A DNA stretch of 64,000 bases, taken from contig RSEE01000033.1 of the NCBI GenBank assembly GCA_003971905.1, positions 310,001-374,000 of the forward strand. The letters run 5' to 3'. The position numbers were made by a program, and so were the translations under genes. Shown here piece by piece: positions 3,450 to 62,884 of this stretch (positions within the stretch are counted from its first letter, which is position 1; every line of letters starts with the position of its first letter). Under the pieces are notes generated by a model. That model had not been told where the DNA came from, did not search any database, and saw only the letters and a list, made by a program, of their open reading frames with translations. Source of the stretch: Moniliella sp. 'wahieum' (taxonomy: Eukaryota).

Positions 3450-4337
3450 GGAGGTGGGTCAGTAGTCGCCAAGGGCAGCTGCTGAGGCGCATCGCTTCTC
3501 CGTTCTGGCGCCTCGGGATTACAGAACGCTCCATCATGCATCGTGCATTCTGCCTCATGCATCACGCCAGCCAATTCGATGACGTCAGGCACCAGAGGGT
3601 ATGAAACATTGAATAATTCGTGCGTACTTCGCATCAGCACATCATCGATCTCCTTGCTCACTAGGCTCTCACTAGTCATTCCGACGCCGGTGCCACCCAC
3701 CACCGACCTGGCCTTGGTTCGGGCTGAGAGTCAACTGCGGTCAAGATCATGTAGGGCTCGCTTAAGATCAATTGAGGACACATTAGACGCCACCCCAAAT
3801 TCCCTTCTGGGTGGTAGGCTGCCAGCTCGACAAGACCATGAGAGATGGGTGTCTTTTTGGAAAAAAGCCAACTGGGAAGTTCAGGAAGTCAATCATCGTG
3901 GCATTGACACTGCATAAGGACGAATGGCATATGGGCCGCTTGGCGGACTTGATGGTAGCCAGGCAACGCTTCAGCTGCACTTCTATTTCTCGACCAACGC
4001 AAAGATCATCCAAACAAAGCGGAACGGCTGTGTAGTCAAGGCGCGAGGGCTCAAGGAGCCCTCAAACCTTCGATCTCCTGTATAGGGATTGCTGTCTGAA
4101 GTCTGACGCTCGAGGACAAACATATCAGCACGATTGGCAAAGAGCAACCCGTGGCTATGGACTGTGGGCGTTGAAGAGGAAATGAGTATGATCGCGGTGA
4201 ATTGAAAGGGGAATACTTACAAGGTCATAGCCTGAGTATGCAGGTGTGATGGTGCTGGTATCTAGATCGAAAAGTGGAAGAGACACATGAGGACAAGGTC
4301 AGTAACAGTATCCTCTGATAGTCAGACAGCAGGCAGA

Positions 4338-4423
4338 GCTCAGACGAAAGATGGTGATTAGGTTGTATATCCGCATCACAAGGAGTTCTTGCTAAGCGTG
4401 GTGCATGAAACTGATCATCTCGG
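4338..4423 (-). ncRNA. Box C/D snoRNA, dual guide for 18S Gm1271 and 25S Am807 (yeast numbering), SNORD32/U32-like
   Basis: Box C GAGATGA; guide CATGCACCAC (antisense to 18S GTGGTGCATG) before D' CTTA; C' GTGATGC; guide TCACCATCTTTCG (antisense to 25S CGAAAGATGGTGA) before D box CTGA. Confidence 0.85.
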
Positions 4424-4557
4424 CAAAGTGGAGGAAACCAAAACTTACGCGGAGGTAGAAGTTAGTAGAGAGTGAAAGGGAATACCGTCTTGCCACAGGT
4501 CTGAAAGGTCACATTGGTCAGAGCTCTGCCTTCACATGAGGTGAGGGATCGGGGAGG

Positions 4558-4637
4558 AATCAGAATGCCATGGATAGGCTACCTTGTTCTCCTCATAAGA
4601 AATAGGAGAGACTCCCACAGTATGGTTTCATCCCGAT
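4558..4637 (-). ncRNA. Box C/D snoRNA, probable SNORD79-like guide for the LSU rRNA GAGA*UUCCCAC site
   Basis: Box C GGGATGA; guide GTGGGAGTCTC (11 bp with one G-U to LSU GAGATTCCCAC); D' CCTA; C' ATGAGGA; D CTGA; lies within intron 4501-4661. Confidence 0.65.
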
Positions 4638-5077
4638 GAAAAGAATGGAGGGTTTGCATACCTTTTGTAGTGACTTTGGACCCTGGGCAAGACGGCTGGT
4701 CAATGGTGGTGGTGGGGATTGAAAAACCTGACGGTAAATCCACGCAGAAGAGCAGAAATAATTTCTTCGGAGGCAGCTCATTGAGCGGAATGTAGGGCTA
4801 AATTCCGCCTGCCTTGCGATGGGGCCGGCGACATGGTGTCGTAGCTGCCACCGCCACCACCGGGAACATTGAACGTTGATTGTTGAGCCTCTACCACCAA
4901 CATCGCAACTGCCTCTGCTAGTAGCTTGCCACGCCAATCCCCAAACGGAGACCCATTTTCTCTCAGCCTACCAAACGCGGAGTACTGCAGTGGTGTATCC
5001 TTTCACCTGTCCTGTGCATCTCTCCTACACCAATCGTATTCGATCTTTCTGCTCGCATCCTTTGACGCGTAGCTAAA

Positions 5078-60943: not shown

Positions 60944-61787
60944 GGACCCGCCCTTTCTCAATCGGGCCCTCGTCTACACCGCATCTGTGTACTTTCTCTT
61001 GAGACATTCGCCTCTCCTTTCTTAAAGGCCTTGTCCAAAAGTTGAGTTACATGGACAAGACCAATGGGACTCGCAGCATCAGAGATCACACAAGGGGGTT
61101 ATTGATCATAGTTGGTCTTCTCGGACGAAGCCGGGCAAGGTAGTTAAACGGAAACTGTTTAAGCAAGATGCCCAAGGACGCTGTGATGGTTAAACTGTGG
61201 CCCTCGAGATAAATAGCTTGAATTCATGGTTGTCTAGAAGCCAGACGGCGAATGATTTTTAGTGACACGAATTGAATGCACGCGCCTTGCCCCCTGCCAT
61301 CCTCCGTCCCGCGTCCCAGCTCACCACAGACTCTGCTTGCCCACCGTGCCATGCCCCGCCATGCTCCGTTCTGGGTCATCTATGCTCATCTGGCCTTGCA
61401 CGCACGGGCCGCCGCGGCTATTCCATCTACAAGGCTCTACCTGCTACAGCCGCTAGTTACTAGTTCTAGTTGCTAGTTACCGGTTACCGGTTACCGGTTA
61501 CCGCCCTGCCCCAACCCTACGCTGCATCAGTGTTCGGTAGGGTTGCGTTCTCGCATAAGCGGTAAGCCCTTGGTAAGCCCTTGCAGCACGGCGTCGGCCT
61601 AGAAAATTTGCAGGCAATAGTGGAGGCAAACAAGGCCCACAGACAGATGTTATTTCAGTGAGTTCCTCAGCCGATAAAAGGCGGATGCGTGTTGCGTCGT
61701 TCCAAATTTCCCACCACCACCATCTTGGGCAAGTGCCCCCACGTCCTACATCCAAGTTTTATTTGTAAGTTCCTGCTCATTTGCCTT

Positions 61788-61915
61788 TATGATGTCTTCA
61801 TCTTCCTTGCCCCGGCTTATATGACCATGCCGAAACGACAAGGCGGCGTCTCGTCGGCGCTACGTGCTTCGGCACGATTGTTCTTCGGTGCTTGCCAGCA
61901 CCTCGTTGTCTGATC
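61788..61915 (+). ncRNA. SNR190: Box C/D snoRNA, probable snR190 homolog
   Basis: ATGATGT ... CTGA inside intron 1; GACCATG..ACGACAAGG resembles yeast snR190 as recalled; immediately upstream of U14, as in yeast. Confidence 0.6.
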
Positions 61916-62058
61916 CTTCCCATATGCTTTGCGCAGCGTCGCTGACATGCATACTTTCTATCTGCTAGATCCACCTCCCCTGTTCCTCCACCTTCCTGGA
62001 GTAGTCAACACAGCATCCGCAACCGGTACGTTTGGCCTCTCGTTCTCAGGCTAGGTTT

Positions 62059-62345: not shown

Positions 62346-62884
62346 GATTTCCCAGCCTGCCCCGATGTCGCGTCTACCGAATAGTGTAGCGTTCTGACTG
62401 ACCTTCATGCCGCGCAGATTGGGCTTCTCAACCTCCACTCGTTCACTGACCTAGGGCGCCACTCTAGTAAGTTTCTTCTCTATGATTACGGTACTGATCC
62501 ATCGCCCACTGCATCTAGTGCTTTCCAACATATGCTTGCCTGTGTGACTTGAGATAATTGCTCAACATGAAATAGCTTGTATCCAAGCCTTCTCCACCCC
62601 ATAGAGCCGACATCGGATGGCATGACGAGGATCCCCAGCGCACGCGAACCGAAAATCTGCGCGTGCGTGTGTACAAAAGCGAATGCGTTGAAGCAAGGTC
62701 TCTGTCACACCCAAGTCACACTAATCACTAGCGGCTTAAAGCTTAAAGCTAGCCAGTTGGGGCGTCTGACGTAATACATTTGGCAGTCTCGCGATGCAGG
62801 TCGCCAACTCGTGAGATCAGGGATGCGGCGGTTTTTCAGAGACGCGTTGCATCCACCACCCCTTTTGCTCTCTCGAGCAGTCCG

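Follow-up and report, generated by a model that had tools for sequence, protein, structure and literature searches.

Introduction

Several fungal systems are known in which introns are nested or snoRNA introns crowd together. The closest in geometry is the rtnA gene of Onygenales. Its second-order intron keeps the branch-point element between two introns, and the acceptor comes after the second of these; splicing intermediates were confirmed in Malbranchea cinnamomea (Kavalecz et al. 2019, PMC6616335). Stwintrons sensu lato have been defined, and the cases described nest beside the donor, as [D6,7] and [D7,8] (PMC7138796); nearly all known stwintrons are of the [D1,2] type (PMC12403724), of which GG is the hallmark (PMC5639578). 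Thirteen nested introns have been reported in C. neoformans (10.1101/224170). For fungal snoRNA clusters, 61 exon-loss events are on record, together with an intron B that lies inside the snR51 intron (Luo et al. 2013, PMC3596301, whose supplements list host structures possibly relevant to nested snoRNA introns), and the S. pombe snoRNA61 host has a zero-length exon (10.1101/226894). Also in S. pombe, the order of snoRNA release is set by RNase III hairpins that span splice junctions (PMC12508059). Searches of open-licence papers yielded no report of a snoRNA intron nested between the branch point and acceptor of another.

We have analysed a snoRNA host locus in the window, by which we mean the whole 64,000-nt stretch of DNA from Moniliella sp. 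'wahieum' under study. An earlier note had proposed that a U32-like snoRNA intron is inserted there between the branch point and acceptor of a 44-nt outer intron, in a geometry it took to be unusual for a snoRNA host. That geometry is already known, having been demonstrated in rtnA (PMC6616335). For the locus itself the most likely interpretation is an ordinary non-coding fungal gene with two rRNA-modifying guide RNAs, each released from an intron of its own.

Organisation of the host locus

The host locus is on the minus strand, to which positions refer unless marked (+), flanked by MPE1 and a presumably Nudix-like gene, the latter giving no Pfam match. The best named homologue of MPE1 is that of Tilletiaria anomala (56%), with two closer homologues at 88% and 80%, which places the organism among smut-related basidiomycetes. 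Three putative introns can be discerned, two with a box C/D snoRNA each and the third empty (Table 1); like every splicing event considered here, their removal is inferred from sequence signals. The earlier note had rightly recognised a non-coding host with a U32-like snoRNA in intron 4448-4262, a double-guide RNA that matches the genome's own rDNA with both guides, and had missed the upstream snoRNA intron, 4661-4501, that directly precedes the proposed nested site. No ATG-led frame for a short peptide was found in the host.

The introns differ in the quality of their signals. In intron 1 the branch motif reaches 6.2 bits, exceeding only three of the 76 training sites, and the acceptor 7.5 bits; the branch motif of intron 2 scores 13.7 bits and that of intron 3 is weak at 4.2 bits. 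The putative intron sets behind these and the later counts were predicted from motifs, not transcripts, with strong donors required by construction.

Table 1. Coordinates of features of the snoRNA host locus and of frame-breaking deletions in the window
Feature	Position (strand)	Description
Arm of predicted 24-bp long-range helix, in exon 1	4670..4696 (-)	Pairs with 4512-4484; prediction only
Intron 1, 161 nt	4501..4661 (-)	Donor GTATGC 4661, after G 4662; branch motif CTCTGAC 4523-4517, weak; acceptor CAG 4501
snoRNA 1, box C/D	4560..4634 (-)	11-nt guide 4618-4608, complementary to LSU rRNA of own rDNA
Inverted-repeat arm over intron-1 branch motif	4517..4531 (-)	Pairs with 4345-4331 (snoRNA 2 D box and 3' flank)
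3' arm of long helix	4484..4512 (-)	Spans intron-1 pyrimidine tract, acceptor 4501 and GT at 4485
Exon 2, 52 nt, if splicing is conventional	4449..4500 (-)	Contains GTATTC 4485 and TACTAAC
Orphan branch-point motif TACTAAC	4461..4467 (-)	Branch A 4462; 14.0 bits
Intron 2, 187 nt	4262..4448 (-)	Donor GTAAGT 4448; branch motif TACTGAC 4304-4298; acceptor TAG 4262
snoRNA 2, U32-like double-guide box C/D	4336..4422 (-)	C box 4418-4412; D box 4343-4340
CAG	4255..4257 (-)	7 nt past intron-2 acceptor; candidate acceptor for orphan branch point after removal of intron 2
Exon 3, 41 nt (34 nt with CAG 4255)	4221..4261 (-)	Putative exon
Intron 3, 59 nt, no snoRNA	4162..4220 (-)	GTAAGT, TACTCAT, CAG; putative
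Frame-breaking 1-2-nt deletions	~527, 6050, 12338, 14860, 22028, 56900, 58858	RPS16, MPE1, OSBP, GPD, RPL25, NAC-beta, NAD kinase

The two snoRNAs

Both RNAs have the C and D boxes of intronic box C/D snoRNAs and an rRNA guide of at least 10 nt ahead of D or D'. The LSU site targeted by snoRNA 1 is one that we take to be snR65-like; the RNA itself has no Rfam match, and is 89-93% identical in two further copies of the host, C127 and C44. It also contains a 9-10-nt stretch, AAGGTAGCC (4585-4577), in the same sense as LSU rRNA about 80 nt from the guide target, through chance or as a mimic. This stretch was rejected as a guide, being sense-identical to the rRNA and not complementary to it.

In snoRNA 2 the guides for 18S (4407-4398, 10 nt) and LSU rRNA (4357-4345, 13 nt) are both complementary to the genome's own rDNA, at sites to which the names U32, snR40 and snR39/59 presumably attach. 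With its 18S guide ahead of D' and its LSU guide ahead of D it is built like U32 or snR40 plus the snR39-snR59 guides (RF00300, RF00134); unlike members of those two families it scores below both Rfam cut-offs, reaching 25.5 bits (E 0.085) against RF00300 (snoZ221/snoR21b), for which the gathering cut-off is 44 bits. Its homologues score 26-34 bits, with RF00134 matched too, again sub-threshold. snR40 is reported to guide 18S-1271 (PMC5824354). An LSU motif search gave no matches because the rDNA of this genome differs there, and Rfam searches of the genome for snR75, snR70 and SNORD27 likewise gave none, the controls being silent for two of these; that for snR61 gave four.

An orphan branch-point motif between the snoRNAs

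The stray splicing signal between the two snoRNAs, TACTAAC, is a strong, unpaired branch-point motif: only 28 among 4439 candidate sites across 928 kb score as high, and it is predicted to be unpaired with a probability of 0.97. The earlier note located GTATTC at 4485-4480, TACTAAC at 4467-4461, GTAAGT at 4448-4443 and the ends of the TAG and CAG at 4262 and 4255, giving an inner intron of 187 nt and an outer one of 44 nt, and all of these positions and lengths are correct. Its reading of a strong branch-point motif also stands, no YAG lying ahead of the next donor. The wording that no AG occurs before the second donor is true of the 12 nt 4460-4449; it overlooks the AAG (4446-4444) that the GTAAGT itself contains, 18 nt beyond branch A.

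None of the 76 putative intron donors on the contig has a comparable orphan motif upstream of it with no intervening AG. Once intron 2 is joined out, the CAG at 4255 scores 5.8 bits and lies 20 nt from branch A, branch-to-AG distances on the contig ranging from 5 to 39, mostly 14-24; a YAG as the next AG within 12 nt of the acceptor, as here, follows eight of the 76 putative introns. Strong branch motifs that have no donor are nonetheless common, with 58 [TR/CG]CTAAC sites in 464 kb lacking a strong donor at normal distance. Genome-wide, TACTRAC-N8-22-BB-GTAAGT occurs 16 times against 22 in a reversed control, and overlapping YAG/GTAAGT after a branch motif 7 times against 10, with no enrichment in either case, and the same motif pattern with no AG precedes a real-looking donor in a coding gene (L114) by codon chance. 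The pattern exceeds chance locally, not genome-wide. If TACTAAC is used at all, its donor is most plausibly 4661, of the upstream snoRNA-1 intron, since no other good donor is available to it, but for 4661 there is a closer acceptor in its own intron, 4501.

The proposed 44-nt outer intron

An outer intron starting at GTATTC 4485, as the earlier note had it, is unlikely, because the donor lacks a +5 G, because branch A would fall at position 24 and because the donor lies in a predicted helix, with its GT inside the 11-bp core. GTATTC matches four of the nine positions of the U1 consensus, and donors that lack a +5 G are not enriched ahead of branch motifs. Ahead of 105 YRCTAAC sites found in 464 kb of this contig, the five bins over positions 12-36 contain 4 strong donors, where each bin is expected to have 0.98, and the five over positions 37-61 contain 27; with a pyrimidine filter there are none in the 20-25 bin and 12-15 per bin for 38-61. 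The shortest credible donor-to-branch spacing seen is 31, in a U14-host intron, and counts below 37 are at background. GTATT does occur 24-29 nt ahead of branch A three times where 0.7 is expected; one of the three is this site, and the other two look like chance. Short introns as such are not foreign to the contig, which has putative introns of 42 and 49 nt, and one of 46 nt is reported in Lipomyces (PMC7138796).

Two further outer donors, the GC at 4493 and GTGGCA at 4496, were rejected as weak and unenriched. A 13-mer (with one indel) occurs at 4485-4473 and 4216-4203 and at no other place in 928 kb, the two being 269 nt apart. An origin of 4485-4449 as a duplicate of intron 3 was also considered and rejected, the alignment as a whole being non-significant at a p of 0.05-0.13, with 22% of intron pairs scoring equally high.

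Predicted RNA helices

Two inverted repeats are predicted to mask the branch motif and acceptor of intron 1 while TACTAAC stays unpaired. The duplex of the long helix has an energy of -36.9 kcal/mol, stronger than 40 of 40 dinucleotide shuffles; its fold has a z of -2.05 and is equalled in 3 of 200 shuffles. Its 11-bp core, closed by the GT of 4485, has a pair probability of 0.94, and 4488-4484 an unpaired probability of 0.0-0.1. The other repeat is complementary at 14 of 15 positions (-27.2 kcal/mol), a score equalled or exceeded in 3 of 200 shuffles and in 8 of 150 windows from the genome. The significance of the helices is modest (p about 0.015-0.05) and they were noticed post hoc; in other snoRNA hosts the values go to -22 to -34 kcal/mol. 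Neither the long helix nor the repeat is kept in the C127 and C44 copies. Compared with junction hairpins of the Pac1 type, the stem after splicing would be 16 bp long with a further inner stem of 4 bp, and before splicing it would be longer; the downstream snoRNA is intronic.

A different helix is predicted in C127 and C44, between the intron-1 acceptor with the start of exon 2 and the intron-2 branch region (1435-1451 with 1626-1646 in locus L031, and likewise in L032); its pair probability is 0.74-0.98, not above shuffle level.

Homeologous copies and metagenome loci

Three copies of the host were found in the assembly, that in the window and those termed C127 and C44 (loci L031 and L032). 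In the latter the two introns recur, with a plain exon of 63 and 65 nt between them, and the intron 1 counterpart is 145-146 nt long. In all three copies the donor and branch motif of intron 2 are strong and conserved, with the same spacing of the branch motif from the D box (35-36 nt), TACTGAC 4304 being the positional homologue of the motif in C127 and C44. The nested signals are not conserved in these related copies: neither homeologue keeps TACTAAC, GTATTC or the tandem CAG. The two copies are not syntenic with the window. Upstream of them lies a heavily frame-broken stretch (about 230-850 in L031) that is presumably STT3-like.

Both guides of snoRNA 2 were found together in 29 metagenome loci, with flanks too distant to align, and in none of the viral contigs searched. 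Most of these loci are near-identical copies in a coding intron, and one (L009) looks like a chance match. A donor lies within 220 nt of the guide in 24 of the 29, and upstream of the nearest one there is no TACTAAC-type motif, one weak GCTGAT apart. In two loci (L007 and L020), as judged by eye, a TAG abuts a GTAAGT upstream of the U32-like snoRNA, beyond the nearest donor, in the manner of a zero-length exon. The coding-gene hosts among the metagenome loci suggest that the non-coding host is the derived state.

Two other arrangements were seen. The host of the U32-like snoRNA adjoins the RNase MRP RNA in L003, L007 and L020, the first of which carries two tandem intronic copies. In L005, L013, L016, L019 and L028 both snoRNAs occupy consecutive introns of a protein-coding gene that by eye is LisH/CTLH-like.

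The U14 and snR61 hosts

The U14 host (window 62418-62518 (+); loci L101-L105) has a 49-nt exon, 62418-62466, after its U14 intron, in a position like that of exon 2. Within this exon CACTGAC lies 16 nt before a GTAAGT, and a TAG overlaps the donor. A branch motif 14-16 nt before GTAAGT is found in three of five U14-host copies (the window, and at 14 nt C3 and C61) and is absent from C23/C8. A YAG overlapping GTAAGT follows the branch motif in two of the five, the window and one homeologue, where it is CAG; the C61 copy has no YAG. Behind the downstream intron of the C33 and C61 copies there is no suitable AG. All upstream donors of the U14 host follow a G, and an exon-skipping route of the [D1,2] type is therefore possible there. 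Another box C/D-like RNA, at 61766-61968 (+), occupies the intron upstream of U14; it hardly varies among all five copies and gives no Rfam match.

In three of the four copies of the snR61 host (loci L090-L093) a 4-nt microexon, TATG, lies between the snR61 intron and the snoRNA intron after it. L093 lacks both the branch motif and the A of its acceptor CAG, through error or de-intronisation.

Quality of the assembly

The assembly gives the impression of long reads with poor polishing, a caution for every finding in this genome that rests on a single base. A one-base frameshift sets MPE1 apart from its close homologues, and GPD is frameshifted relative to solved structures; read against conserved motifs, there are further deletions in RPS16, OSBP, NAD kinase (a single non-homopolymer G), RPL25 (2 nt) and NAC-beta. 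Between rDNA copies there are 19-96 indels per 2.2-3.7 kb, and roughly one quarter of these are non-homopolymer single bases. A second homologue search for mapping more indels gave no matches. The assembly also holds several diverged subgenomes, with 10 matches to GPD at 78-100% among 14 and the four copies of the snR61 host falling into two pairs; no second haplotype of the locus was found in it. Motifs of 18S rDNA occur 27 times, many of them near contig ends. Single missing bases are frequent enough here to create or erase apparent splicing oddities, and the assembly deletion that the earlier note itself had named as a refutation is live, because several frame-breaking deletions of 1-2 nt lie in the window.

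How the locus may be spliced

We favour, with a probability of about one half, ordinary splicing as three introns in which TACTAAC is idle or of minor use. A non-coding Pol II transcript, divergent from MPE1, would be spliced mainly as introns 4661-4501, 4448-4262 and 4220-4162, with 4500-4449 as an exon, GTATTC 4485 not serving as a donor and no order of splicing being obligatory. Release of snoRNAs from intron lariats by debranching and trimming is an established pathway, and each snoRNA here would probably be freed from its own lariat in this way. TACTAAC would be idle, an option that takes about two thirds of the weight of this reading, or would give donor 4661 a second branch point of minor use, with exon 2 skipped. 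We prefer ordinary splicing because each intron has a complete set of donor, branch point and acceptor; because the C127 and C44 copies have plain exons at this place and the U14 host has a 49-nt exon in a like position; because strong motifs that lack a donor are common, the motif-before-donor pattern is unenriched and L114 shows it by chance; and because there is no excess of donors at position 24. Against it stand the orphan motif itself, far stronger than that of intron 1 (14.0 against 6.2 bits) and unpaired, the burial of the proximal branch motif and acceptor, the want of any like case among the 76 donors, and the presence of the motif in three of the five U14-host copies. The conventional reading fits every signal, and with plain exons in two homeologous copies an obligatory inside-out order, as claimed in the earlier note, is not supported; of its nested splicing there survives the point that some nested route is possible on the sequence, though not with the tiny outer intron.

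One such route, improbable as the main one, would join donor 4661 to branch A4462 and the CAG at 4255 in an intron of 220 nt once joined, with intron 2, whose GTAAGT is perfect, leaving first. The helices would hide the proximal 3' signals, the 24-bp helix covering 4512-4484 and the second repeat the proximal branch motif; the exit of intron 2 would bring CAG 4255 to a typical distance from the branch point, and snoRNA 1 would be freed afterwards. The motif has no better donor, and the geometry is that of rtnA as described in PMC6616335. But the helix, the motif and the tandem CAG are all absent from C127 and C44, the significance of the helix is modest, the AAG in the donor of intron 2 is the first AG met while that intron is present, and two U14-host copies have nothing suitable behind the downstream intron. 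A deletion in the assembly between 4449 and 4448, of similarly low standing, would make TACTAAC an ordinary second branch point of intron 1. A lost A would give a CAG sharing its G with GTAAGT and, with G4662, a stwintron of the [D1,2] type in which exon 2 is skipped; a lost AG would give a zero-length exon. The frame-breaking deletions in the window and the indel-rich rDNA copies speak for this, as do the YAG that overlaps GTAAGT in two of five U14-host copies, the TAG that abuts it in L007 and L020, the snR61-host copy that lacks the A of its acceptor, and the zero-length exons known from fungal snoRNA hosts (PMC3596301; 10.1101/226894). The chance of an error at one given site is only about 1e-4 to 1e-3, an estimate based on roughly one frameshift in each kb of coding sequence. 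The C61 copy of the U14 host has no YAG either, the overlap of YAG and GTAAGT is not enriched, and no second haplotype of the locus was found. We do not rate a deletion lower, despite the low chance per site, because both repaired forms have close precedents.

The remaining routes seem very unlikely. In that of the earlier note, with donor 4485, A4462 and CAG 4255 around intron 2, a 15-nt exon 4500-4486 and an obligatory inside-out order, the elements do stand in the right order, introns of about this length occur on the contig (putatively) and in Lipomyces (PMC7138796), GTATT exceeds expectation at this spacing and 4485-4449 weakly resembles intron 3; the position of branch A at 24 where 31 is the shortest credible, the poor donor with its GT in a helix and the lack of conservation weigh against it. 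It is just as doubtful that the AAG at 4446-4444 is an acceptor for donor 4661 and A4462. It is the first AG past the branch point, and HAG is the fungal acceptor consensus (PMC7138796), but it scores -1.9 bits (with a training set of YAG only, by construction) and its use would destroy the intron-2 donor, which with its branch motif is strong and conserved in three copies; the two routes would be mutually exclusive, and snoRNA 2 would stay in the spliced RNA. Multi-step routes are the remotest. An inner intron could run to CAG 4315 and regenerate C+AG, as an acceptor-split stwintron for which GTCTGAC 4327 and CAG-AG 4317-4313 are present, or a second-order intron could use an exon-1 donor, the GTs at 4674 and 4681 lying 52 and 59 nt before branch A after removal of intron 1. 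But GTCTGAC has 4.7 bits against 13.7 for TACTGAC 4304 and is only 18 nt from the D box, and the exon-1 GT sites fit the donor consensus poorly.

On the most likely reading the locus adds another unannotated host gene with two snoRNAs, of interest for annotation alone. If the nested route from 4661 were true, the second-order geometry of Onygenales would occur in a non-coding basidiomycete gene, as a 600-nt test case for a control by splicing order and RNA structure over the order and ratio of maturation of co-hosted snoRNAs. A wider proposal, which is tentative and which we think rather unlikely, is that helices hide the upstream 3' signals so that 4661 uses TACTAAC, that CAG 4255 appears after exit of the U32-like intron, that splicing order would thereby fix the order of snoRNA release, and that the motif in three of five U14-host copies reflects a lineage habit of exon-skipping routes.

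Comparison with known systems

Four systems bear comparison with this locus. In S. pombe, mamRNA/snR107/snoU14 is likewise a host of two snoRNAs with an exon 1-exon 2 stem around a snoRNA intron; its stem forms only after splicing and its second snoRNA is exonic (PMC12508059), whereas here the predicted stem is longest before splicing (24 bp, and 16 after, where Pac1 needs about 20) and the second snoRNA is intronic. Fungal snoRNA clusters and the snoRNA61 host resemble it in being non-coding, with one snoRNA per intron and exons tiny or absent (PMC3596301; 10.1101/226894). In those hosts an AG still stands ahead of the following donor and splicing runs from 5' to 3', whereas here no YAG precedes GTAAGT, the assembly reading CGC and then GTAAGT where a zero-length exon would have YAG directly before GT.

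Stwintrons (PMC7138796, PMC5639578, PMC12403724) are nested U2 introns spliced inside-out, and one restored A would give a [D1,2] stwintron here, with GG at 4662-4661. Only with that A missing from the assembly would the locus be one sensu stricto; as assembled, no consensus element is interrupted, the inner intron lying 12 nt after TACTAAC and 4 nt before the CAG. Stwintrons have been demonstrated by RT-PCR, whereas this site is known from its sequence.

The likeness to rtnA is closest: a branch-point element lies between two introns and an acceptor behind the downstream one, which must leave first (PMC6616335). But rtnA is an ascomycete coding gene in which the arrangement is obligatory for the frame and conserved in 29 species, with the donor upstream of the first intron. 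Unlike rtnA, the present host is non-coding, carries signals that its homeologs do not keep, and has no good donor upstream of its first intron.
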